Shown here piece after piece: positions 6,039-39,688 of a DNA stretch of 46,054 nt. Position 1 is the first letter of the stretch; each line of letters opens with the position of its first letter. A program made the translations under genes and the position numbers. This stretch comes from Escherichia virus ECH1, in sequence record MN164484.2, one strand, 5' to 3'. The notes below the pieces were generated by a model. The model saw only the letters and a program-made list of their open reading frames with translations. It did not search any database and had not been told where the DNA came from.

Positions 6039-6370
6039 ATGAAGGCAGTATTTAAAGGTTATAAAAAAGCTGGTTGTTTGGAATTTACTATTGGTAAGAT
6101 TTATGAGCTATCAACGGCAACTGAGGCTTTCGGATTCTTAAAAGTGACTGATGACGATGGATTTAATGGAGTAATTATCCCAGGTGACACCTATGATTTC
6201 GAGGTGCTGATTCCAGATGAATTTATCAATAAAAAAAGCAATTTAAATATTACATTAATGGCGAAGTGGTTACTAAGACAAAGTTCGACGATACGCTATT
6301 GTGTGTTAAGGACTTTGAAAGAGATGGCATTGATACATCATCAATAAAGTTCGAGGTAAAATTCGAGTAA
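6039..6370 (+). CDS. moron, paralog of the 18912-19274 ORF; needs a -1 frame change at A7 run 6231-6237
   Basis: Frame 0 (6039-6347) gives the N-terminal part; the -1 frame from 6233 encodes KYYINGEVVTKTKFDDTLL...IKFEVKFE, matching the C-terminus of the 18912 ORF. Confidence 0.5.
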
Positions 6371-6427: not shown

Positions 6428-7684
6428 ATGGTAAAAACAGACAGCTACGCCAACATCTTTCTTGGCGGCAGTGACGGTAGTGAGATTTACGGAAGTTTAC
6501 AGAATCAGGCGCCTACAATTCTGGCTTCGCTTTATGTGGATAATGCACTTGTGCGTCGAATTATTGACACAATCCCAGAAACAGCATTGGCGGCAGGGTT
6601 CCATATTGATGGTATTGATGACGAACCTGCGTTCTGGTCGCGCTGGGATGATCTTGAGATGACGCAGAATATCAACGATGCCTGGTCATGGGCTCGGTTG
6701 TTCGGTGGTGCGGCAATTGTCGCTATCGTTAAGGACAATAGAGCGCTAACAAGTCCAGTCAGAGAGGGTGCTGAACTTGAAACGGTTCGTGTTTACGACC
6801 GCACGCAAGTGAAAGTGCAAAATCGCGAAGAGAATCCACGTAACGCACGCTTTGGTAAGCCTCTGACGTATCGCATCACCACTAACGAAAGCGATATGTT
6901 CTACGACGTGCACTACAGTCGCATTCACATTATCGATGGCGAGCGTGTACCTAACGCAATGCGTCGGCAAAATGATGGCTGGGGCCGTAGCGTTCTATCC
7001 AGTGACATTCTTGACTCAATTAAGGATTACACAAACTGCGAGCGACTCGCCACGCAATTACTTAGACGTAAACAGCAGGCGGTATGGAAGGCGAAAGGTC
7101 TGGCTGAGTTATGTGATGATAGCGAAGGGTTTGGCGCTGCAAGATTACGACTTGCGCAGGTTGACAACAATAGCGGCGTAGGTCAGGCGATTGGTATTGA
7201 TGCCGAATCTGAAGAGTATAGCGTTCTAAACTCTGACATTGGTGGGATTGATGCGTTCCTGGACAAGAAGTTTGACAGAATCGTAGCACTGAGCGGTATC
7301 CATGAAATCATCCTCAAGAACAAGAACGTTGGTGGCTTATCATCCAGTCAGAATACGGCGCTTGAGACATTCCACAAGCTGATTGACCGTAAGCGCAACG
7401 CTGAACTACTGCCCATTCTTGAGTTCTTAATACCGTTCATCGTAAACGCAGAAGAATGGTCAGTTGAGTTTAGCCCTCTAGCCCATGAGTCAAGCAAGGA
7501 TAAAGCGGAGGTTCTGGAGAAGAGCGTAAACAGCATCGCAGCACTAATTGCAGCCGGAGCTATGGATATCAACGAGGCACGTGATACACTACGCACTATC
7601 GCACCAGAGATTAAGATTGGTGATAATGATATTCAGACCGAGTACTCGGAGTTAATTACAGAGACGGAGGTTGTAATTGCGTAA
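6428..7684 (+). CDS. portal protein (putative)
   Basis: 418 aa, immediately downstream of the terminase large subunit; size and position. Confidence 0.75.
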   Translation: MVKTDSYANIFLGGSDGSEIYGSLQNQAPTILASLYVDNALVRRIIDTIPETALAAGFHIDGIDDEPAFWSRWDDLEMTQNINDAWSWARLFGGAAIVAIVKDNRALTSPVREGAELETVRVYDRTQVKVQNREENPRNARFGKPLTYRITTNESDMFYDVHYSRIHIIDGERVPNAMRRQNDGWGRSVLSSDILDSIKDYTNCERLATQLLRRKQQAVWKAKGLAELCDDSEGFGAARLRLAQVDNNSGVGQAIGIDAESEEYSVLNSDIGGIDAFLDKKFDRIVALSGIHEIILKNKNVGGLSSSQNTALETFHKLIDRKRNAELLPILEFLIPFIVNAEEWSVEFSPLAHESSKDKAEVLEKSVNSIAALIAAGAMDINEARDTLRTIAPEIKIGDNDIQTEYSELITETEVVIA

Positions 7685-7749
7685 ATTAACTGGTTTCGGT
7701 GAGGGGTAATGAAAAATGAATTTGATGGCTTTTAGTGAGGAGAATTGTG

Positions 7750-8859
7750 ATGTGTAAGATCCGCTATGACAGTGCAAAGGTAAAGGCCAGATTTGATGAA
7801 AACGGATTCCTGGTTGATACCCCGATTGTTGCGCGCGTCGGGGTGCAAACCTACCACCTTCCAGACGGTACAGAACGCAGAGAATTTAGACCAGCCTCAG
7901 AGGTCTTTAAGCCTGATTCTCTTGCCAGTTATCAGGGTAAGCCAATTACCTTAGGTCATGTGTTTGTTAACTCAGAGAATGCCAAAGAGGTCGTTGTAGG
8001 CGCGGTATCTGGGTCAGCTATGCGTGAGGACTCTAATGTTATTGTTCCTCTAACCGTTTACGACAAGGAATCCATCGAGAAGGCAAAGTCCGGCATTGCT
8101 GGTGAGTTATCAGTAGGTTACTCCACTGTTGATATTGATTCGAAAGGTTGGGGTAGCAATGAAACTGGTGAGTATAAGCTGGACGGAGAATACCATTCAC
8201 AAGATGAAATCCCTTCTGATTGGGTCAGATTCGATGCCCTGCAAACTGAAATCAAAGTAAATCACGTAGCTCTTGTCTATCAGGGCCGCGCTGGAGTAGC
8301 CAAACTTAATTTTGACGCTCAGCAGGAAAACCCGTATACTGGCAGCGTTGATTCTATTAAAGAGGACGTAAAAGAAATGGTTAAGATTAAACTCGACGGT
8401 GCTCAGGAGTTTGAAATTGCTCCCGAAGTCGCCGCACACATTGAAGCAGTTAAGGCCGACTCAGCAAAAGAGAAAGCAAAAGCTGACGCTCTTGAAGCTG
8501 AGCGTGATGCGCTTAAGGCTAAAGTTGATGCAATGCCAGCAGAAATCGAGAAAGCAGTTGCTAAAGCGAAAGCAGACGCAGACGCGCTCGCAGCTTTGGT
8601 TGCTGTTGCTGCTGATGCTGGTGTTAAAGCTGATGGTCTGGATGCTAAAGGCATTAAAGTTGCCTACGTTAAAGAAGTCTCAGGCCTTGATGTTTCGGAT
8701 AAGTCTGACGCGTACATCGACGCAGCGTTCGACATTGCCAAAGAATCTGATAAAATGGCTGAAGTGCGTAAAGCGACTACCGCTTCCGACAAATCTGACA
8801 GCGCCGATGAGCCTAAGAAATTAGACCCGCGTGCTCGTTTAGCTAAAATTAAGAAATAA
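7750..8859 (+). CDS. head maturation protease/scaffold-like protein
   Basis: ATG 7750 with RBS GAGGAG; globular N-terminal half plus Ala/Lys/Glu-rich coiled-coil C-terminal half; lambda C/Nu3-like position. Confidence 0.45.
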   Translation: MCKIRYDSAKVKARFDENGFLVDTPIVARVGVQTYHLPDGTERREFRPASEVFKPDSLASYQGKPITLGHVFVNSENAKEVVVGAVSGSAMREDSNVIVPLTVYDKESIEKAKSGIAGELSVGYSTVDIDSKGWGSNETGEYKLDGEYHSQDEIPSDWVRFDALQTEIKVNHVALVYQGRAGVAKLNFDAQQENPYTGSVDSIKEDVKEMVKIKLDGAQEFEIAPEVAAHIEAVKADSAKEKAKADALEAERDALKAKVDAMPAEIEKAVAKAKADADALAALVAVAADAGVKADGLDAKGIKVAYVKEVSGLDVSDKSDAYIDAAFDIAKESDKMAEVRKATTASDKSDSADEPKKLDPRARLAKIKK

Positions 8860-12028: not shown

Positions 12029-12419
12029 ATTATCATTAGCAGCAAGGAAATTCGTCGACGATTTGTTGGTAAATGAATTTCCGGTCAGGTATCCAGTTGC
12101 GTGGGAGAATTGTGAGTTTAAACCCCCTGCCGATGGCTCAATCTGGCTTAAGTACGACTACACGGAAGTTGACACCGTAACTTACGGATTAAGCAGGAAG
12201 TGCAAATACTATGTAGGCATGGTGCAGGTTTCTGTTTTCTTCAGTCCTGGAACTGGAATTGACAGGCCGAGACGGATTGCTAATCAATTGGCAGAATCTA
12301 TCGTTGATGGTACAATGCTTGATAGCGGGACCATTTATGAGTCTGGAGTTGTTAACCCGGTTATCAAATCCAAGTCTGGGTGGTTTATCCCGGTTCGTTT
12401 TTATGTTCGTCTAGACTAA
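12018..12419 (+). CDS. tail terminator-like protein (putative)
   Basis: 133 aa immediately upstream of the major tail gene. Confidence 0.4.
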   Translation: MQYELSLAARKFVDDLLVNEFPVRYPVAWENCEFKPPADGSIWLKYDYTEVDTVTYGLSRKCKYYVGMVQVSVFFSPGTGIDRPRRIANQLAESIVDGTMLDSGTIYESGVVNPVIKSKSGWFIPVRFYVRLD

Positions 12420-12434
12420 CAAAAGGAAAAATAT

Positions 12435-13091
12435 ATGGCCCATCTTAGTAATGGAACTCAAGTGTTCGTTGAAGGTTCTCGTGGCGACGCTGTTGCAGTT
12501 ACAGCAATCTCTAACGCAGCAAGCCCTGTTCTAACTGTAGATGACGCATCTGGTATCGCGGCTGGTGATTACCTGCTGTTTACCGCGTCTGCTTCCACCC
12601 TTCTTGCTGACAAGCAGGTTCGAGTTACCTCAGTTACTGGCACGTCAATCACTGTAGAAGGTATCGATACTTCTAATACCACTAAATTCCCGGCTGGTTT
12701 GACTGGTGAAGTGGTTAAGATTCTTTCATGGTTCGAAGTTCCGTGCGTTCAGGACGTATCTACTGACGGCGGCGAGCAGCAGTTCGTTAACTTCCAGTGT
12801 CTTTCTGATGACCGTGAACAGCAGATTCCGACTTATAAATCTGCCGTAACAAACACCTTTACCTTTGCTCACGAGTACACCAACCCGGTTTATCCGGTTC
12901 TGCGTAACTACGATGAGTCTGGCCAGGTTGTTGCGATTCGCCTGTTCGTACCTCGCGCTCAGGAAATGCGCTTGCAGTCCGGCACTATCGCTTTCAACGA
13001 CACGCCAACAATTGGTGTTAACGAAATCGAAACGGTATCTATCGCTGTATCCATTCGTGGTCGCTTGTCCTCCGTGGCAGCTGAAGTTTAA
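12435..13091 (+). CDS. major tail (tube) protein (putative)
   Basis: 218 aa, Thr/Ser/Val-rich; position before the chaperone pair; terminator follows. Confidence 0.6.
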   Translation: MAHLSNGTQVFVEGSRGDAVAVTAISNAASPVLTVDDASGIAAGDYLLFTASASTLLADKQVRVTSVTGTSITVEGIDTSNTTKFPAGLTGEVVKILSWFEVPCVQDVSTDGGEQQFVNFQCLSDDREQQIPTYKSAVTNTFTFAHEYTNPVYPVLRNYDESGQVVAIRLFVPRAQEMRLQSGTIAFNDTPTIGVNEIETVSIAVSIRGRLSSVAAEV

Positions 13092-13099
13092 AACACAAA

Positions 13100-13124
13100 C
13101 CCTCTTCGGAGGGAATTTTTTATT
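13100..13124 (+). terminator. rho-independent terminator (CCCTC-TTCG-GAGGG plus AATTTTTTATT)
   Basis: Hairpin plus T-rich run. Confidence 0.55.
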
Positions 13125-13169
13125 GATAGCACTTTTTGTTAAAGACTAAAAATCAAAATGCTGTATAGT
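13125..13169 (+). promoter_or_regulatory. conserved promoter-like cassette (GATAGCACTTTTTGTTAAA, 20 nt, TATAGT)
   Basis: Motif 13125-13143; TATAGT 13164-13169; leader ATCATCGAAACGAAATGAG; ATG 13202. Confidence 0.5.
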
Positions 13170-13201
13170 TAAATCATCGAAACGAAATGAGAAATTAAGA
13201 A

Positions 13202-13468
13202 ATGAATAGTAAGTTAGAAGTATTATCCGCACTTCGCGGCCCTATTTGTGTAGCTGCGCTGGTTGCCTTTTATGCAGCAGTTCAGATTATCAACCCAACA
13301 AGAGCGGAAACAGCAAACTCTGACGCGGCAAAATACAATTCGGTTTTCTCTGAGCACAAGGCAATCTGCGAGAAGGCTTCTGGTAGCAAGATTGAGCAGG
13401 TTCTGAAGTATGGCAAGGAAATCTGCGTAGATATCGCGCACGACATTGCAAAAGAAAGCACTAAGTAA
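13202..13468 (+). CDS. moron: small secreted/membrane protein (88 aa, four Cys)
   Basis: N-terminal hydrophobic segment ICVAALVAFYAAVQII; own promoter-like cassette; sits between tail tube and chaperone genes. Confidence 0.45.
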   Translation: MNSKLEVLSALRGPICVAALVAFYAAVQIINPTRAETANSDAAKYNSVFSEHKAICEKASGSKIEQVLKYGKEICVDIAHDIAKESTK

Positions 13469-13504
13469 TACAATAATCAAACACTAAAAAAGAGGATTAA
13501 CGAG

Positions 13505-13819
13505 ATGGCAAAGTTCAAACTTTCACTAGCGGCACTACCTGACTTTAAACTGCCTGTAAAATTCAAGCTAGCTAACGACCAGGATGTAGAGGTTATGTTC
13601 ACAGTTAAGCACAAGAAAACTTCTGAACTGCAGGAGTTGCTTAACAAGGAAAACCTGAGCACTAAAGAGCTTATTATGGCAATTGCCTCTGATTGGGATT
13701 TAGAGGAAGAGTACAATGAGGAAAACGTTAATGAGTTCTCCGATCTGTTCCCGACTTCAACCGTTGCTTTGACTACTGCTTACATGCAGGCACTGGCGGG
13801 TCAGCGAGTAAAAAACTAA
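13505..13819 (+). CDS. tail assembly chaperone (gpG-like)
   Basis: 104 aa acidic protein just upstream of the tape measure; ends in slippery heptamer A AAA AAC. Confidence 0.65.
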   Translation: MAKFKLSLAALPDFKLPVKFKLANDQDVEVMFTVKHKKTSELQELLNKENLSTKELIMAIASDWDLEEEYNEENVNEFSDLFPTSTVALTTAYMQALAGQRVKN

Positions 13820-14139
13820 AGAGGGCGATGTATCTACAGTACCAGTCAGAGCCAACTGATGCCGAGCTGGAAGCTATTGGGATGCGCCGCTCTGATTACG
13901 AAGATGAAGAGCCCGAGGTTTTACACTTCGACGAGAACATGATGAAGGCTTGGGACATTTATTGTTCAATGGCTACACAATGGAGAGTCGGAGCTAACGG
14001 AGCTACAGGGCTAGATTACAACGTGCTAAATTTCCTCTTTAGAGTGTATAATGTTTCTGAAGAAGAATTGGTGCTCAGCGATTTACGCATCCTTGAAGCT
14101 AAGGCTCTTGAGATGATGGATAACCTGAGAAAAAAATAA
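13505..14139 (+). CDS. tail assembly chaperone G-T fusion via programmed -1 frameshift at 13810-13816
   Basis: Canonical X XXY YYZ heptamer A AAA AAC in the zero frame; the -1 frame is open and in phase with ORF 13828-14139. Confidence 0.6.
13828..14139 (+). CDS. gpT-like chaperone extension ORF (103 aa; may also be translated from its own ATG)
   Basis: ATG with RBS GAGGG; in phase with the -1 frame of the upstream chaperone. Confidence 0.5.
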   Translation: MYLQYQSEPTDAELEAIGMRRSDYEDEEPEVLHFDENMMKAWDIYCSMATQWRVGANGATGLDYNVLNFLFRVYNVSEEELVLSDLRILEAKALEMMDNLRKK

Positions 14140-14160
14140 CCCGCTTCGGCGGGTTTTCTA
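14138..14160 (+). terminator. rho-independent terminator (AACCCGC-TTCG-GCGGGTT plus T-run)
   Basis: Hairpin identical to the one at 9399-9420. Confidence 0.6.
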
Positions 14161-14174
14161 TTATGGAGGCTTAG

Positions 14175-17162
14175 ATGGCAACAAATGAATTAGCCGGAAT
14201 CACACTAGCCGTAGATGTCTCGCAAGTAGACAGGGGCACGCAATCCCTGCAAAAGTTCAGGCAGGCAAACCAGCAAGCCGCTTCCGGAATTAGTGAATTC
14301 GTCAATGCTGAGCAGGTCGCAAAAGACCAAGCCAGAGACACGGCTCGCGCACTGGCTGAACAGCAAGCATCTTTAGCTAAATTGCAAACAGCTATTGACC
14401 CAACTGCGGCAAAGTTCCGTAAGCTGCAAGAGGCTGCTGTAGGTCTGGATAAGGCTTTCGCGGCTGGCGTAGTTCCTGATGAGGAGTTTTTCCGGTTAGG
14501 TGAGGCACTTGAAACTCAGAACGCAAAACTTGCTCGTTCACGTGCTGCGCTAACTGAAGAGGGAAGGGCTGCGGCGCAGGCTGCAAAGGATAAGGCAAAA
14601 GCAAAGGCTGAAGCTGACAGGTTCATTGCATCACTTGAGCGACAGGCTCAAGCGGCAACATTGACGCGTGAGGAGTACTTGAAGTTACAGGCTGCTCAGC
14701 TTGGCGTAAGCTCTCAGGCTGCACCCATCATTGACAGAATCGCCGACGCATCACAGAAGGCAAGCACCCAGTTAATCGCTCAGAGCAAGGCTTTTCAGCG
14801 CTCTGGCTTAAGCGCAGGTCAATACAAGAATGCCATATCTCAACTACCAGCGCAGATTACTGATATTGGCACGTCGCTTGCTGGAGGCATTCCGATTTGG
14901 CTTATTGCAATTCAGCAGGGTGGGCAGATCAAGGATGCATTTGGCGGTATTGGTAACACCTTTAGATTCGCGCTTGCAGCCTTAAACCCATTTAATGTAG
15001 CTGTTGGTGTTTTGGGTGGCGCACTTATTGCTCTTGGTGTTGGTGCAGCTCAGGCTGAAAGTGAATTCAGAGCATTAAACTCCGCAATTGCTTTCTCCAA
15101 CAACTCTACAATCGCATCAATCTCGCAGGTTAGAGAGTTGGTTAGCTCTGTTTCTGATGCAACAGGTGCTACCAGAGGACTTGTGACTAGCATCGCAACA
15201 AGCCTTATTGAGCAAGGGAACCTTACGCTGACGCAGATTGACAAGATTACTAAATCGACCGCAAGATGGGCGCAGTTGACAGGTAAGGATGCGAAGGAGA
15301 TTACTGGTTACTATAACCAGATTGCAAGCGACCCAATCCAGGGTTTAGTTGATTTGGATAAGCGCTTTAACTTCCTCACACAGGGGCAGTTGACGACAAT
15401 CGAAAACCTGAGAAAGACAAAGGGAGAAGTTGAGGCCGTTACTGCTGCGATTGATATTTTCAGCAAGTCTCAGGAAGCCAACCTTAACGACATAGCTGCG
15501 CAGTTAACTCCGCTTGAGCTAGCCTGGAATGATTTCAGAAAGTACATCTCTGATATCTGGGATGCAATTAGTCGTAGAACGGTCGGGGCGCTGAACCTAT
15601 TTGTTGACGTAATCGCCGGAACGATTGAACAGATCAGGGTATTCATTAACCAGGGTGATGTTCTGATTGGTGAATTCGTAATTAGCGCAACTCAGGCATT
15701 GCAGAACATTCCTGGTCTTGATGGCGTTGGTGATGATGTTATCAAGGGGCAGCAGAAGATTATCGATGCCGCCAAGAAGCAAAACCTTGAGCTAGAGAAG
15801 TCTATCAAGGAGCGAGATGCCAGAATCAGAGAGGGAGAGCTTGGTTACGTTACTCGCAGAGAAAATCAGAATACCAATGAGCAGTCAGGTACTGATGAGG
15901 AATTTGCAAAAAGGAAGAAGGCGCTTCAGGATGAGCTTGATGCGATCAAGAAGAACAGGAAAGAAGAAAATAGTAGGGTTAAGGAGCAAAGAGATTTAAC
16001 AATTGGTTATGAATCTGGCGTTCTGGCGCTTCAGGCTCAACTCAAGGTGCTTCAGGAAAACAGGGATATTGGCGCAGTAATAAGCAATGAGCGCAAACAG
16101 TATCTTCAGGAGGAGGCCAAATTCAGGATTCTTGAGCAGAGACAACTTGATGGCTCAATTACCAAAGAGCAAGCAAGACTTCTCATTGAAAAGGATAAAG
16201 TTCTTGAGTTAGCCAGACAGAAGGCTGAGCTAGGTGATCAGATTGTTTTGCAGGAGCGAGCTAATAAGTTAGCTGAAGATAACCGCAAGAAGATTCTTCA
16301 GATTAACAATGAGGCAAGTAACATTGATTTGGGTGCTGGTTTATCATCTCGCGAGCAGCAGAGAGCAAAAGAGATTCAGGCTCTTCAATCCAATCAGGTT
16401 AATGCTGGTGGTTCTGTTGATGATGTTGATTTTCAGCAACTTCTCGAAGCAAGAAAGAAATGCTATGCTCAGGAGGATGCGCATACGTGCAACTGGCTCG
16501 CTGGCGTAACAACAAATCTTGCTACCTGGGCTCAGAGCGCGACGGAATGCACTCAAATTGCTGGAAGTTTCACCACGACAGTCTTTGAAGGTATTACAGA
16601 CCAGATTACAAACCTTGTATCCACTGGTGAGACGAACTTCAGGGATTTTACTGTTAGCATCCTTAAGCAGATTGCTAAGATTGCAACCCAGCTTCTTTTT
16701 GTTAAGGCTATTGAGTCTAGCTTATGTAGCTTCGGTGGTGGTGGCGCTAATGCATTTGGTTCGATTGCATCTGGTTTTGGGTTCGCTACCGGCGGTTACA
16801 CTGGGGATGGTGGGAAGTATCAGCCAGCCGGTACGCTGCATCGTGGAGAGTTTGTATTCACAAAAGAAGCGACAAGCCGAATTGGTGTTAAGAACCTTTA
16901 CGCACTGATGAAAGGTTACGCAAACGGCGGAGCGGTTGGTGGTCCATCTGGTTATTCTGGTGGTGGTTTGGTTTCTGGAGGATCAGATGTTAATGTTAGC
17001 GGTATCACTGTTAACGTTAATGGTGGCGTTGGTAGCGACCCAGAGCAAGCAAAGGCGTTGCAAAACGGCGTTAAGGCCATCGTAGCGGAAGAGATTGCGC
17101 AGTCTTTCCAGCAGGGTGGGCGTGCTTATGCTTACCTTCGCGGATTCAACTACTACCACTAA
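14175..17162 (+). CDS. tail tape measure protein
   Basis: 995 aa, coiled-coil Ala/Gln/Lys-rich, hydrophobic central segments, Gly-rich C-terminus; position after chaperones. Confidence 0.9.
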   Translation: MATNELAGITLAVDVSQVDRGTQSLQKFRQANQQAASGISEFVNAEQVAKDQARDTARALAEQQASLAKLQTAIDPTAAKFRKLQEAAVGLDKAFAAGVVPDEEFFRLGEALETQNAKLARSRAALTEEGRAAAQAAKDKAKAKAEADRFIASLERQAQAATLTREEYLKLQAAQLGVSSQAAPIIDRIADASQKASTQLIAQSKAFQRSGLSAGQYKNAISQLPAQITDIGTSLAGGIPIWLIAIQQGGQIKDAFGGIGNTFRFALAALNPFNVAVGVLGGALIALGVGAAQAESEFRALNSAIAFSNNSTIASISQVRELVSSVSDATGATRGLVTSIATSLIEQGNLTLTQIDKITKSTARWAQLTGKDAKEITGYYNQIASDPIQGLVDLDKRFNFLTQGQLTTIENLRKTKGEVEAVTAAIDIFSKSQEANLNDIAAQLTPLELAWNDFRKYISDIWDAISRRTVGALNLFVDVIAGTIEQIRVFINQGDVLIGEFVISATQALQNIPGLDGVGDDVIKGQQKIIDAAKKQNLELEKSIKERDARIREGELGYVTRRENQNTNEQSGTDEEFAKRKKALQDELDAIKKNRKEENSRVKEQRDLTIGYESGVLALQAQLKVLQENRDIGAVISNERKQYLQEEAKFRILEQRQLDGSITKEQARLLIEKDKVLELARQKAELGDQIVLQERANKLAEDNRKKILQINNEASNIDLGAGLSSREQQRAKEIQALQSNQVNAGGSVDDVDFQQLLEARKKCYAQEDAHTCNWLAGVTTNLATWAQSATECTQIAGSFTTTVFEGITDQITNLVSTGETNFRDFTVSILKQIAKIATQLLFVKAIESSLCSFGGGGANAFGSIASGFGFATGGYTGDGGKYQPAGTLHRGEFVFTKEATSRIGVKNLYALMKGYANGGAVGGPSGYSGGGLVSGGSDVNVSGITVNVNGGVGSDPEQAKALQNGVKAIVAEEIAQSFQQGGRAYAYLRGFNYYH

Positions 17163-17200: not shown

Positions 17201-17703
17201 ATGTTAAAAGCATCAGGTGATAAACTGAAGTGGAATGATATCCCTGAGTATAGAGATTTTGTCCTTTATTGGAAGATTTCAACAAGCAACATATCAAGAA
17301 AAAAGATTGGTGATGTTGCGGGTAATCAAATGAATGATGGATACATAATGGTTCAGGCATTAAACAAAAGAATGCTTGCTCATAGGGTTGTTTGGGAAAT
17401 GCATAATGGCAGTATAACTAATGGCATGCATATAGACCATTTAAACCACATAAGGAATGACAACAGGATAGAAAACCTAAGACTGGTGTCAAGAACAGAA
17501 AACAACAGGAATAAATCAGTCAAAAGTAAACAAAACAGGTGTTTCAGGAGTTACATTAAAAGATGGGCTATTTCAGGTTTCGATAGGTGGAGAAAAAAAC
17601 AAGACTTACATAGGAAGGTTCTACACACTGGATCAGGCTACAGCAGCAAGGAAATCCGCAGAATTTCAACTATGTTACCACAATTATCATGGGGGATTTA
17701 ACT
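17201..17703 (+). CDS. HNH-AP2 homing endonuclease, frame-disrupted (HNH in one frame, AP2 domain in the +1 frame from about 17530)
   Basis: HNH motif HRVVWEMHNG...IDHLNH...NRIENLRLVSRTENN; alternate-frame AP2-like NKTGVSGVTLKDGLFQVSIGGEKNKTYIGRFYTLDQATAARKSAE; paralog of 39194-39688. Confidence 0.6.
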
Positions 17704-18889: not shown

Positions 18890-18911
18890 TACCCAATCGA
18901 AACGAGAGGAG

Positions 18912-19274
18912 ATGAAAAAAATGTTCCAAATTAAATTTAACGGATACAAAAAAGACAAAGAAGAGTGCGCTGGTTTGTTTTTCATTGGCCACAATTACCC
19001 CTGCAGTGTTGTTGACTCAAACAGACACTATCAGACGCAGGATGAGAATGGCAATATTGTAAAGTTTAAAAGTATTTTCCGTGATGCTTGTTACGACTTT
19101 TCAAGAATTGATACTCAGAGCAAGGTATTAGACGAGCATGATAACAAGATGAAATATCGAATGAATGGTGTTGATGTCACTAAGTCATTCTTTGATGATA
19201 AGCTACTGGAAGTTGAGATGCTTAAATCAATAGATGTTTCAGTATTTATAGATTTTGAGGTTTATTTTGAATAA
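18912..19274 (+). CDS. moron, paralog of 6039-6370 (120 aa)
   Basis: Own promoter-like cassette and terminator; N-terminus FNGYKK and C-terminus IDFEVYFE match the 6039 gene. Confidence 0.5.
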   Translation: MKKMFQIKFNGYKKDKEECAGLFFIGHNYPCSVVDSNRHYQTQDENGNIVKFKSIFRDACYDFSRIDTQSKVLDEHDNKMKYRMNGVDVTKSFFDDKLLEVEMLKSIDVSVFIDFEVYFE

Positions 19275-19292: not shown

Positions 19293-19320
19293 TAGGTCAA
19301 TCGAAAGGTTGGCCTTTTTT
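19293..19320 (+). terminator. terminator-like hairpin plus T6 followed by ATTGGAGA RBS
   Basis: AGGTCAA...TTGGCCT stem with T-run. Confidence 0.5.
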
Positions 19321-19332
19321 ATTGGAGATAAA

Positions 19333-20091
19333 ATGTTAACACCAAAGGTTAAGCTGGAAATCTTCCAGCACGCAAAAGAAATTTACCCGCATGAGTGCTG
19401 CGGAGTTGTAACGCAGAAGGGTCGGGCGCAGAAATATCACAGAATCACTAACGCCAGCAAAGACCCCGAGAACGAGTTCATTCTTGATTCAAACGAGTAT
19501 GCAGATGTTCTCTTTGAATTGGCTCACAATGAATCTATTGTTTACGTAGTTCACTCTCACACAGGCGACGGAGCAACAACAAGGCCAAGTCCTGCGGATA
19601 TTTGTAGCTGCAATGAGTGCGAGATTCCGTATGTTATCGTAAGTATCCCAGAGGGAGATATGCGGATTCTTGAGCCGTCAACCATGCCTCTGATTGGTCG
19701 CCCGTGGGGGCTTGGTAGCTTTGATTGCTGGGAGATGGTTATGTCGTTTCACAAGAAATACGGAGTAAAACTGAATGACTACCGCGTTAATTACCCGTGG
19801 TGGGAGAAGCGGTACAATGAAAATATCTATGACGACAACTGGGTTGAGGAAGGATTTGAGCTGGTGAAAACTTCAGATATTCCCATTGGCTCAATGATTA
19901 TGATGCAAGTGCAAAGCGAGGTGACAAACCACGCTGGAATCTATATTGGCAATAACAGATTCATCCACCATCTATATGGTAAAATGAGTTCAGTAGATAT
20001 CTATTCCGATTACTGGCGCGAGCGCACGGTGCGAATTGTTCGCCATAAGGATTTACCAGAGGATGTAATTTATGACCCAGAAACTGATTGA
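19333..20091 (+). CDS. tail assembly protein (lambda gpK-like, JAB/MPN plus NlpC/P60 features)
   Basis: HECCG and HSHTGDG (JAMM-like) motifs; C-terminal Cys/His segment FDCWEM...HAGIY...FIHH. Confidence 0.75.
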   Translation: MLTPKVKLEIFQHAKEIYPHECCGVVTQKGRAQKYHRITNASKDPENEFILDSNEYADVLFELAHNESIVYVVHSHTGDGATTRPSPADICSCNECEIPYVIVSIPEGDMRILEPSTMPLIGRPWGLGSFDCWEMVMSFHKKYGVKLNDYRVNYPWWEKRYNENIYDDNWVEEGFELVKTSDIPIGSMIMMQVQSEVTNHAGIYIGNNRFIHHLYGKMSSVDIYSDYWRERTVRIVRHKDLPEDVIYDPETD

Positions 20092-24142: not shown

Positions 24143-25114
24143 TTAGTAGAAGCTTGGAATAAATGGAAGTGCCATTGATATATTTGTGTCGAAAGGGAAC
24201 TGAGCGCCAGTCTGAGTTGAATAGTTACCTATTACAGAGCCAGGAACAGCCCTAACAGAGCCTCCAGACATGCAAACGCCCTTGTATCGCAAGTTGTTAT
24301 ATCCTCCAGTAACTCTAGTCGTAGCGCCACATCTAAGAATAGGGAAGAATCCACCATTTATTGACTGATATCCATTGCTTATTTGTATAAATCCACTAAG
24401 TACGAATGGTCGCCTAACGCTTGAAAAAACAATCTGACCAGAGCTATTTGACATTGTTAGTCCTGGTCCGGCTGGTGGTGGTTCATTTCTGAATATCACC
24501 AGCTGAACATAAGTACTTGCCGAAACATCATCTGTACCTCCGTAGGTTATATCCCTGCACCATATTGTTGATCCATCTGATTCAAGTGATACGTTTGGAT
24601 TATCCCACTTGCCGAATGGTATGCCGCTAACTGGTAGCGATGCCGCCCCGTTAACCTGTATGCCTCCAACCCATGCTGCTGACATTAGTCTCGAGTTGCT
24701 TGATATAGCAAGGAAATCAGTTGAGTTCTCAACGAGTATCCCTGGGCTTGATGAAGATGATGCTGGTAGAATTTCAAAACAATTACCCGCAAAGTCAATT
24801 ATTCGACCATTGGCACCATTGAAGTTACTAAGTGTTATCCTGCCAACTCCGTCATTAACCTTTTGGAATCCGTTCATGTAATAAACTTCAGGTATAACAT
24901 CGTAAGCATCAACGTGGACTGCCTTCGTTGGTAGGCAGAAAGCCGTAGAGCCAGGAGACATTGTCAATCCAAAATCCCACGAACTTGCTGGGGTTGAAAG
25001 TCCATTGGTATTTATTGATCCAGTCACAGCAGGTGCCCTTAATCCTGCCGTTATTTCCATCGCTGGTCTTCCGTCATTGAGGTCAATCAATATACCCTGC
25101 GGCATTATTTCCAC
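24143..25114 (-). CDS. putative receptor-binding/distal tail protein (323 aa)
   Basis: Gly/Ser/Asn-rich beta-type composition; co-transcribed with the lipoprotein gene; convergent with J. Confidence 0.35.
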
Positions 25115-25356
25115 TCCTTGCTGCCATGATCTGCAATAGAGCCACCGTAACCGCCGCCAGCCTTGCTTTCAATTCCGGCGTAGCGAACATCAACCTCACC
25201 AGCCGGAACAACTACGCCACCTTTCCATTTAGCTACGCACACACCATTTGCTTGTGTTGCACACCAACCATCCGGGCGAGGACCAGATGAGCAACCTACC
25301 ATCATGATTGCTGCTGCGGCGATGATTGAAAGTTTGATTAATTTAGTCATTTTCAT
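25105..25356 (-). CDS. lipoprotein, candidate superinfection-exclusion protein (Llp/Cor-like)
   Basis: Lipoprotein signal ending in MVGC; mature part about 61 aa with two further Cys; 10-nt overlap with the downstream gene. Confidence 0.6.
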
Positions 25357-25392: not shown

Positions 25393-25436
25393 TCATATCT
25401 TAACTGTTAGGTTTGTCTTTAGCTATTCGTGCTATT
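25393..25436 (-). promoter_or_regulatory. conserved promoter-like cassette on the minus strand (AATAGCACGAATAGCTAAA, TATGAT)
   Basis: Reverse complement of 25418-25436; leader CCATCAAAACGAAACAC; drives the lipoprotein operon. Confidence 0.5.
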
Positions 25437-39193: not shown

Positions 39194-39688
39194 ATGGATT
39201 GGAATGATTTTCTTGAGTATAGAGATGGCAGGCTTTACTGGACTGGCCCGCATTCAACAAAACTCAAGCCAGGTGATGAGGCTGGCAGCAGTCACCATAG
39301 GTGTTATTGGTACATTCGCAGATATGACAAAACAATGTCAAGGCACAGAATCGTATGGGAGATGCACAACGGACCAATACCAGAAGGCATGGAGATAGAT
39401 CATATAAATCACGCCCCTGTTGATGACAGGATTGAAAACCTAAGAATGGTCACAAGAAGGCAAAACAATCAAAACAAGAAATTAGATGGAAGAAATACAA
39501 GCGGACACGTCGGGGTCAGCTGGAACAAGAAGACAAACAAATGGAGAGCAATGATAGGCATAAAGGGAGAGGACGGAAAGAGGAAAACTCTATACGTTTA
39601 CTATGGTGATTCTTTCGATGACGCAGTGTCAGCAAGAAAGAGAGCTGAGGTTGAGTACTCATTTCACGAAAATCACGGAAGAAGCTAG
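39194..39688 (+). CDS. HNH-AP2 homing endonuclease (intact)
   Basis: HNH motif HRIVWEMHNG...IDHINH...NRIENLRMV followed by AP2-like SGHVGVSWNKKTNKWRAMIG...YYGDSFDDAVSARKRAE. Confidence 0.75.
   Translation: MDWNDFLEYRDGRLYWTGPHSTKLKPGDEAGSSHHRCYWYIRRYDKTMSRHRIVWEMHNGPIPEGMEIDHINHAPVDDRIENLRMVTRRQNNQNKKLDGRNTSGHVGVSWNKKTNKWRAMIGIKGEDGKRKTLYVYYGDSFDDAVSARKRAEVEYSFHENHGRS

Follow-up and report, generated by a model that had tools for sequence, protein, structure and literature searches.

A moron-like cassette in the tail operon of Braunvirinae phages encodes a putative exported accessory protein

Introduction

Why would a strictly lytic phage keep a small accessory gene in the middle of its tail operon? 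The question is raised by Escherichia virus ECH1 (sequence record MN164484.2), whose 46,054 nucleotides (nt), analysed here over their full length and referred to as the window, contain an open reading frame (ORF) of 88 amino acids (aa) at 13202-13468 on the plus strand. The ORF lies between the gene for the major tail (tube) protein on its left (12435-13091, plus strand; PF08813, E = 1e-68) and the gene for a tail assembly chaperone on its right (13505-13819, plus strand; PF08748, E = 5.9e-33). A preliminary description of the locus took the ORF, together with a terminator and a promoter upstream of it, for a self-contained moron that interrupts the tail operon and encodes a small envelope-targeted protein. 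The stretch from 12400 to 14200 is 94.9% identical at the nucleotide level to Escherichia phage vB_EcoS_ACG-M12 (Drexlerviridae, Braunvirinae, Guelphvirus; genome 46,054 bp), a phage reported to be non-temperate, and about 85 further phages of the Rtp group match the same region at 80-90% nucleotide identity. The ORF is the counterpart of ACG-M12 gp52, a 'hypothetical protein' from which its product differs by one residue.

The best overall explanation, to which we give an even chance of being right as a whole, is that the ORF is a Braunvirinae-specific, moron-like cassette gene with its own promoter, the product of which is exported and affords protection at the level of the envelope. The gene, as a hypothetical one, and the repeat in front of it were already known; new here are the cassette polymorphism of the slot that it occupies and the constant spacing that ties the repeat to a -10 element.

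An accessory gene inserted between tube and chaperone genes

Rogue1 (Rogunavirinae), TLS and FritzSarasin (both Tempevirinae) and KLPN1 (Webervirus) have the tube and chaperone genes side by side, with just a terminator and a -10-like element at the junction. The gap between the two genes measures 72-100 nt in these phages and in six insert-free contigs from IMG/VR (72-74 nt in the contigs, which have neither repeat nor ORF), compared with 413 nt in the window and 397-515 nt in the IMG/VR Braunvirinae contigs that carry the repeat and a cassette; the IMG/VR contigs are mostly the same isolates and add little diversity. Since the tube and chaperone genes are adjacent in other subfamilies of the Drexlerviridae, the ORF unit is inserted and moron-like, and the interruption of the tail operon that the preliminary description had proposed is borne out. 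The inserted unit extends from about 13122 to 13468 and consists of the repeat, the -10 element, a leader and the ORF; its boundaries were set by eye, global alignment of such short intergenic regions being too noisy. A homologue of the chaperone is found in 829 phage records, a homologue of the ORF (by tblastn) in 81, all of them of the Braunvirinae type.

The ORF is almost certainly a real inserted accessory gene. In every one of the 16 related loci read at the DNA level the ORF keeps its frame, start and stop, and the two length differences among them, of 18 nt and 3 nt, are both in frame. The ratio of nonsynonymous to synonymous divergence (dN/dS, Nei-Gojobori) is 0.08-0.25 between close pairs, as expected under purifying selection. 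A profile search gathers 47 protein clusters, and two cysteines and 17 other columns are invariant in the family. The product matches the orphan family phrog_22925 over residues 17-88 (E = 2.1e-23; relatives score 1.8e-55 and 2e-28). This family falls into three allele groups, the 88-aa type of the window and two 82-aa types. Between the window and the group of EC3a, OzMSK and IME253 the ORF product is 44-48% identical, as against 92-93% for the tube protein and 95-96% for the chaperone; the dN of the ORF is 0.46 compared with 0.017-0.066 in its flanks, and its dS, near saturation, is about twice that of the flanks. Judged by these comparisons the gene is constrained and yet either evolves much faster than its neighbours or is exchanged between lineages, a pattern typical of interaction factors.

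How well does the unit fit the concept of a moron? In the sense of Juhala and Hendrix a moron is extra DNA between genes that are adjacent in related phages (PMC3594210), and the ORF unit is just that. A putative promoter of its own is discernible as a conserved repeat with a -10 element at fixed spacing, but it has no canonical -35. A terminator downstream is lacking: the terminator scan found no terminator-like site between the stop of the ORF at 13468 and 13505, the next one being located at 14138. Nor does the base composition deviate, with a guanine-plus-cytosine (GC) content of 0.42-0.455 across the ORF and of 0.415-0.505 in the neighbouring genes (200-nt windows), the junctions being AT-rich (0.365-0.39). 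The criterion of prophage expression that benefits the host is inapplicable, Drexlerviridae being lytic. The unit fits the core criterion for a moron, then, and not all of the classical ones. Of the 'self-contained unit' described earlier, the motif ahead of the ORF stands; the unit has no terminator of its own, the terminator upstream is ancestral and the GC content does not set it apart.

The evidence for the ancestry of that terminator is straightforward. The intrinsic terminator of the tube gene (13100-13121, plus strand), identified by the terminator scan, consists of the hairpin CCCTC-TTCG-GAGGG (13100-13113), two A residues and a T-run, which corroborates the earlier placement of a terminator at 13100. 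The hairpin is invariant in eight phages, and equivalent hairpins follow the tube gene in Rogue1, TLS, KLPN1 and FritzSarasin, none of which has an insert; the terminator is therefore ancestral to the tube gene and lies outside the inserted unit. It is weaker in the window than in ACG-M12 and EC3a (-8.5 against -11.5 kcal/mol), and read-through into the ORF may be higher in the window phage owing to this difference. The stem in the window has five base pairs, down from eight, and is separated from the T-run by the two A residues. The sequence TTTTATTG, which follows terminators and was considered as a motif, was discarded as merely a T-run succeeded by a ribosome-binding site.

At the other end of the insertion a second promoter, TTGCAA-N17-TACAAT (13446-13474, plus strand), overlaps the 3' end and the stop codon of the ORF and precedes the chaperone genes. 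It ranks ninth among 92,054 positions scored with our own weight matrix, is also found by a plain consensus scan, was annotated independently by the authors of the EC3a genome, and is conserved in all eight phages with the ORF. The TACAAT -10 (13469-13474) and the leader behind it resemble, by eye, the promoter and leader that follow the terminator in Rogue1, while the -35 hexamer TTGCAA is provided by the last codons of the ORF. This predicted promoter is the one that drives the tail assembly chaperone genes.

A putative repeat-type promoter ahead of the ORF

If the second promoter serves the chaperone genes, what drives the ORF? Upstream of it lies a copy of the Drexlerviridae direct-repeat element, ATAGCACTTTTTGTTAAA (13126-13143, plus strand), which holds the near-palindrome TAGCA-N5-TGTTA and forms the upstream element of a putative promoter. 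Allowing one mismatch at most, the 18-mer ATAGCAC-N4-TG(C/T)TAAA occurs 17 times in the window, where 0.01 copies would be expected. Together with two looser copies (33157 on the minus strand, and 39691) they make up the 19 copies inspected, those on the plus strand at 1306, 2116, 2747, 5966, 13126, 18846, 27584, 32098, 33663, 36163, 37204, 39122, 39691 and 40779, and those on the minus strand at 25435, 25752, 33157, 44831 and 46013. A TAnnnT hexamer, mostly TATAGT, is located exactly 20 nt downstream in 13 of the 19 (binomial P = 2.5e-19 at a background TAnnnT frequency of 0.017); in three further ones the hexamer is shifted to 19 or 21 nt, and in the last three CATAAT or CATAAA takes its place at 20-22 nt. 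Ahead of the ORF the hexamer is TATAGT (13164-13169, plus strand), 20 nt after the repeat, with a predicted transcription start near 13176. The relatives keep both the repeat and the -10 at this slot (TATAGT or TATTAT in phages with the ORF, TATATT in Rtp, TATAGT in AugustePiccard), and the 20-nt spacer between them is free in sequence and fixed in length.

The repeat itself has a history. The re-annotation of TLS by the Kropinski group lists 21 copies of aaATAGCACnnnTTGnTAAAA, oriented with transcription and located upstream of genes, notes the repeat in T1, Rtp and Rogue1 as well, and reports just three sigma-70-like promoters in TLS (PMC11447400). This TLS/T1 repeat and the repeat of the window are the same sequence element. 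Our scan of the TLS genome finds (T/C)AnnnT exactly 20 nt after the repeat in 16 of 20 copies, and at 19 nt in two more. Whereas the TLS paper leaves the role of the repeat open, most copies in both genomes have a -10-like hexamer at a constant distance of 20 nt, which argues that the repeat is the upstream half of a putative, family-wide promoter class. The ORF probably does have a functional promoter of its own. The 22 nt between the TTGCTA-like hexamer of the class and the -10 are too many for a normal -35, and the inverted repeat TAGCA-N5-TGCTA within the element is centred near -42. A position near -42 is that of a class II activator site. The arrangement suggests that promoters of this class may depend on a factor bound near -42 rather than on a normal -35. 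As for the promoter motif formerly placed at 13125, the recurrent motif from 13126 with its TATAGT at 20 nt is there, and a plain sigma-70 consensus is not. TTGATA at 13123 was tried as a -35 and rejected: its partner -10 falls into the non-conserved spacer, the hexamer is broken (TTGCAT) in the EC3a group, and paired with a weak -10 it ranks only about 257-369 of the 92,054 positions in our weight matrix scan. In FritzSarasin, which has no insert, the stretch that separates the post-terminator -10 from the ribosome-binding site of the chaperone gene holds an inverted copy of the repeat, CCACTTTTAACAAAAAGTGCTAT (about 1270-1292 of the stretch examined).

The -10 is followed by the leader TCATCGAAACGAAATGAGAAATTAAGAA (13174-13201, plus strand), recognised by its conservation among relatives and containing a weak Shine-Dalgarno sequence, GAGA (13189-13192), 9 nt upstream of the start of the ORF. 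Part of it, CATCGAAACGA, recurs behind other copies of the repeat, at 18895, 36212, 39740 and 40828, and more generally the repeat is succeeded, at a distance of 38-102 nt, by a leader resembling CATCGAAACGAGAGGAG and an ATG; of the 18 copies with a downstream ORF, 14 have a distance of 48-70 nt. The leader also contains a three-codon mini-ORF, ATG AGA AAT TAA (13187-13198), ending 3 nt before the start of the ORF; it reads ATG AGA GAT TAA in most relatives and is lost in CY1 and TR2, which have an extra ORF. The mini-ORF could be due to chance or could be a device for translational coupling.

The company that the ORF keeps behind this type of promoter is mainly non-structural. In the window the repeat precedes helicase-like, primase-like, homing-endonuclease-like and kinase/phosphatase-like genes and many small ORFs, names given from the sequences alone as for most of the small ORFs; it also precedes an Erf recombinase, a lipoprotein of the Rtp45 type and two paralogues annotated as 'virion structural protein', which, like three small ORFs, were assigned by family or pairwise searches. 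In TLS no copy with a proper -10 falls within the structural gene block, and the structural block of the window contains only two copies, at 13126 (the ORF) and 18846. This distribution suggests that the ORF may be expressed with the non-structural programme and not with the surrounding tail genes. The two paralogues (6039-6347 and 18912-19274, both plus strand) belong to phrog_14592 and have repeat-type promoters upstream; the second is located inside the tail gene block, immediately upstream of an ORF at 19309-20091.

An exchangeable slot

The slot between the tube and chaperone genes is not always filled by the same gene. Rtp has the same terminator, repeat, -10 (TATATT), leader and start context GAAATGAA, and then, instead of the ORF, rtp34 (7381-7767 of the Rtp stretch examined), which encodes an unrelated protein of 128 aa. 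Rtp34 begins with MKAIIAIMATLLLAGC followed by NSD, a textbook lipoprotein signal with the lipobox LLAGC; its match to the Cor family in PHROGs is at chance level only. Homologues of rtp34 occur in AugustePiccard, MM01 and RobRod40, and the one of AugustePiccard was confirmed to be in the same slot (1159-1545 of the stretch examined). The lipoprotein gene replaces the ORF together with the second promoter, so that in Rtp and AugustePiccard the chaperone gene follows within 18 nt and has only the repeat-type promoter ahead of it, an observation that favours a working promoter at the repeat. CY1 and TR2 show a third arrangement, an additional ORF of 46 aa (phrog_16572) between the -10 and the small ORF, in which two hydrophobic stretches can be discerned by eye. 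Every occupant of the slot is predicted to be envelope-bound, and by this sequence-based reckoning the slot is an exchangeable site for envelope proteins.

A predicted signal peptide and a small helical domain

Is the product of the ORF likely to leave the cytoplasm? Residues 1-35 (13202-13306, plus strand) constitute a predicted Sec signal peptide with the n-region MNSKLEVLSALRG, which contributes the positive residues K4 and R12, the h-region PICVAALVAFYAAVQII and the c-region NPTRA; signal peptidase I would most likely cut between TRA and E, or alternatively between ETA and N after A38. On manual assessment all three regions conform to what Sec and signal peptidase I demand, namely a positive charge in the n-region, 7-17 hydrophobic residues in the h-region and a polar c-region in which -3 and -1 are small. 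All members of the family have a basic N-terminus, a hydrophobic core of 15-17 residues and an invariant N-P, with a T in nearly every member, and a small-x-Ala site is conserved throughout (TRA before E or ETA before N in the window; GEA before D, ADA before N and GGA before T elsewhere). In the published record a homologue has already been scored: the MSK genome paper describes SignalP 4.1 predictions for all gene products and names as the only positives MSK_000011 and the Rtp45-like lipoprotein MSK_000046. In that genome the major tail protein is MSK_000010 and the 992-aa tape measure MSK_000014; from its place between these two, MSK_000011 is the 82-aa homologue of the ORF. Export of the ORF product is, judging from these features, quite likely. 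The N-terminal hydrophobic segment of the 88-aa product is confirmed at residues 14-30, and the picture of a small envelope-targeted protein drawn in the preliminary description gains from both the fit to a Sec signal peptide and the SignalP result for MSK_000011.

An unlikely alternative, though the strongest of the rivals, is that the N-terminal segment stays uncleaved and anchors the protein in the inner membrane (N-in, C-out), where it might, for example, block the channel formed by the tape-measure protein of an incoming phage. HK97 gp15 and T4 Imm act in this manner. Residues 14-30 are hydrophobic enough to invite this reading, TMHMM also calls a membrane helix in MSK_000011 according to the same paper, and HK97 gp15, an inner-membrane protein, comes from the same kind of genomic position. 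The core of only 15-17 residues speaks against it: the best 19-mer scores +3.5 to +4.4 on an approximate version of the membrane-insertion scale of Hessa et al., and this is too weak for a stable membrane helix, so that a cleaved signal peptide fits better than an anchor. The conserved Pro at -5/-6 and the small-x-A motif likewise fit a signal peptidase I site, and the homologue is SignalP-positive.

A lipoprotein is not indicated either. The lipobox L-(A/S)-(G/A)-C is absent; C16, which is missing from the 82-aa alleles, stands in the context G-P-I-C. The product has three cysteines, C16, C56 and C75, which corrects the four counted earlier; C16 is part of the hydrophobic segment and specific to the allele of the window, and C56 and C75 alone are invariant in the family. 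Both are in the mature domain of about 50-53 aa (13307-13468 including the stop codon, plus strand), which is predicted to be helical. AlphaFold2 models this domain as a hairpin of two long helices, with a mean predicted local distance difference test (pLDDT) score of 78.8 in the best model and 58-73 in the others; the mature-domain model is shallow and variable, and the full-length model is poor (pLDDT 53). An intramolecular C56-C75 disulfide is plausible by conservation and location, and the AlphaFold2 model lends it no support.

A proposal for function and its rivals

How might such a gene work? We propose that the cassette was inserted between the tail-tube terminator and the ancestral chaperone promoter in the Braunvirinae branch of the T1-like phages. 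Host RNA polymerase would start near 13176 from the promoter made up of repeat, 20 nt and TATAGT. Most other copies of the repeat precede genes for replication and recombination or small non-structural genes, and so the ORF is probably expressed independently of the late tail genes around it. The 88-aa precursor would be exported by Sec and cleaved by signal peptidase I around residues 35-38, releasing a helical periplasmic protein of about 50 aa whose C56 and C75 are likely to be oxidised in the periplasm. Our best guess for its role is envelope-level protection of the infected cell or of the progeny, and most probably it would hinder a post-adsorption step of superinfecting relatives, such as passage of the tail tip or the tape measure, or DNA entry. 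By analogy with known systems we advance post-adsorption exclusion tentatively, as an idea that falls somewhat short of an even chance.

By position and logic the closest precedent is HK97 gene 15, the original moron, and the comparison is one of analogy. Gene 15 encodes a small inner-membrane protein that blocks genome injection, leaves the receptor untouched and depends in its action on the tail of the incoming phage. Like the ORF, it is an extra gene in the tail operon of a siphovirus, close to the chaperone genes, with a small envelope-targeted product. The two proteins have no sequence similarity (no Pfam or PHROG match), and the genes occupy different junctions: gene 15 lies between the chaperone and tape-measure genes, the ORF between the tube and chaperone genes. 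Moreover, gp15 is expressed from the prophage of a temperate phage, HK97, and the ORF belongs to a strictly lytic one; gp15 is integral to the inner membrane, whereas the ORF product by prediction looks like a cleaved, soluble periplasmic protein; and the ORF unit, in contrast to gene 15, has no terminator of its own. T4 Imm and T4 Spackle (Sp) likewise act after adsorption. Spackle is a Sec-exported, helical, disulfide-bearing protein of the periplasm that blocks superinfection after adsorption. Spackle and Imm are, like the ORF product, small proteins of a lytic phage; no match to either was found in sequence or fold. Sp targets the gp5 tail lysozyme, while no such lysozyme was identified among the tail genes of the window phage. 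More widely, sequence and fold searches revealed no similarity of the ORF product to the known exclusion and defence families (T4 Imm/Sp, HK97 gp15, Sie and the PADLOC set).

Several observations weigh against the explanation that we favour. The phage is strictly lytic, unlike the classical hosts of morons. The promoter of the ORF has no canonical -35, TTGTTA sitting 22 nt from the -10, and a plain scan for TTGACA-N16-18-TATAAT finds no plus-strand promoter at 13125; the authors of the TLS re-annotation consider roles as stoperator, enhancer or UP-element for the repeat (PMC11447400). Repeat-type promoters are also located ahead of the two 'virion structural protein' ORFs, which makes an 'early or non-structural regulon' only a tendency. 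The homology and structure searches that the preliminary description had proposed were run and remained without a match outside the orphan family: a word-index search gave no remote homologue and an exhaustive profile search retrieved none outside the family, the one spurious match being a low-complexity repeat protein; Pfam (E <= 1), NCBIfam, PADLOC and PDB sequences gave no significant match and PHROGs gave the orphan family only; and Foldseek searches of PDB and BFVD with the mature-domain model were equally negative. Finally, C56 and C75 are about 11 residues out of register in the AlphaFold2 hairpin, as reckoned from helix boundaries and not from coordinates.

Receptor masking, one of the functions suggested at the outset, turns out to be the least likely of them. 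In this scenario the protein would bind the terminal outer-membrane receptor from the periplasm and so protect the progeny, like Cor, Llp and Rtp45, lipoproteins of T1-, T5- and Rtp-type phages that are envelope-targeted accessory proteins of the same phage group as the ORF. The predicted envelope targeting agrees with it, the rapid evolution of the protein would suit a surface that interacts with host or phage, and the Rtp34 lipoprotein lacks an Asp at +2 and is therefore probably sorted to the outer membrane. The alleles tell a different story. IME253 is reported to use FepA and OzMSK uses LptD, and their ORF products are identical at 81 of 82 residues; conversely, AugustePiccard and JeanPiccard both use LptD and carry different cassettes in the slot. 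The window phage, furthermore, already has a homologue of Rtp45 (25105-25356, minus strand; 83 aa, lipobox MMVGC, 80% identity to Rtp45). This homologue has the receptor-binding gene (24143-25114, minus strand) for a neighbour and, at 25435, a putative promoter of the same repeat type as the ORF. Rtp45 is said to prevent adsorption during lysis, in the summary given by the MSK paper. Unlike Cor, Llp and Rtp45, the ORF product has no lipobox, its gene is not linked to the receptor-binding gene and its allele does not track receptor specificity. With an allele that does not follow the receptor and an Rtp45 homologue already in place, masking of an outer-membrane receptor is unlikely; we give it little credence.

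An equally improbable rival is a modulator of lysis timing or of envelope stress, in which the periplasmic domain acts on a holin or another lysis component, or on a periplasmic enzyme of the host. T4 RI, the antiholin, is similar in outline to the ORF product, in which a small hydrophobic segment at the N-terminus precedes a predicted helical domain in the periplasm, and most of the phage family does without the gene. Yet it is neither in nor near the lysis cassette, its product has no similarity to lysis families in PHROGs or Pfam, and the hydrophobic segment is not notably rich in Gly or Ser, unlike signal-anchor-release domains.

A part in tail assembly or in the virion, for features specific to Braunvirinae such as the rosette tail tip, is very improbable. 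The gene does lie inside the tail cluster in the same orientation, and transcripts from its promoter must continue into the chaperone and tape-measure genes; but Rtp, the prototype of the rosette-tip phages, has the unrelated lipoprotein instead, which makes a structural role unlikely. The export signal, a protein divergence 7-27 times that of the neighbouring tail genes and the fact that the protein is not among the structural proteins named in the excerpted MSK text point the same way. The last reading, a chance ORF in an enlarged intergenic regulatory region, could appeal to the weak ribosome-binding site (GAGA, 9 nt upstream) and the orphan family, and is effectively refuted by the dN/dS values, the conservation of frame, start and stop with in-frame indels in 16 loci, the homologues in 81 phage records and 47 protein clusters, and the invariant cysteines and 17 other columns.

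Genomic surroundings

The local gene order begins with the tail terminator gene, upstream of the tube gene, and continues beyond the ORF and the chaperone gene with the frameshift partner of the chaperone (13828-14139, DUF1799), a second terminator from the terminator scan at 14138 and the tape-measure gene (14175-17162). Between the latter and the next tail gene an ORF of 166 aa (17201-17701, plus strand) resembles HNH endonucleases and is similar to another ORF at 39194-39688; it is probably a homing endonuclease insertion.

The divergence from ACG-M12 is patchy. Per 100 nt, the first half of the tube gene (window 12400-12700) has 17-25 mismatches and the start of the tape-measure gene (window 14200-15000) has 6-14, mostly 9-14, as against 0-1 in the ORF and the chaperone gene. 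This uneven pattern indicates what would be mosaic recombination among close relatives. This region of an E. coli phage also shows 87-89% identity to two records named Pseudomonas phage PsgS01F and Campylobacter phage A110b, whose host labels are probably misattributed or reflect contaminants.

Significance

A bolder version of the favoured explanation, which we think has perhaps one chance in a few of holding, sees the slot between the tube and chaperone genes of Braunvirinae as a dedicated expression site, with a repeat-type promoter and a common leader and start context, where these lytic phages exchange envelope-targeted effectors, one of them secreted and helical, another a lipoprotein and a third a small membrane protein. 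In this version phrog_22925 would be a new class of periplasmic factors for post-adsorption exclusion or progeny protection, whose specificity among co-circulating T1-like phages is set by rapid allelic divergence. With three diverged alleles and an unrelated lipoprotein in one slot behind one type of promoter, the locus is a compact and testable case. The fixed 20-nt link between repeat and -10 suggests a role for the repeat, and would account for the scarcity of canonical promoters in these genomes. T1-like phages notoriously contaminate laboratories and fermenters and are at the same time candidates for phage therapy; exclusion or protection factors beyond the known receptor-blocking lipoproteins would shape both the compatibility of phages in cocktails and the competition between them.

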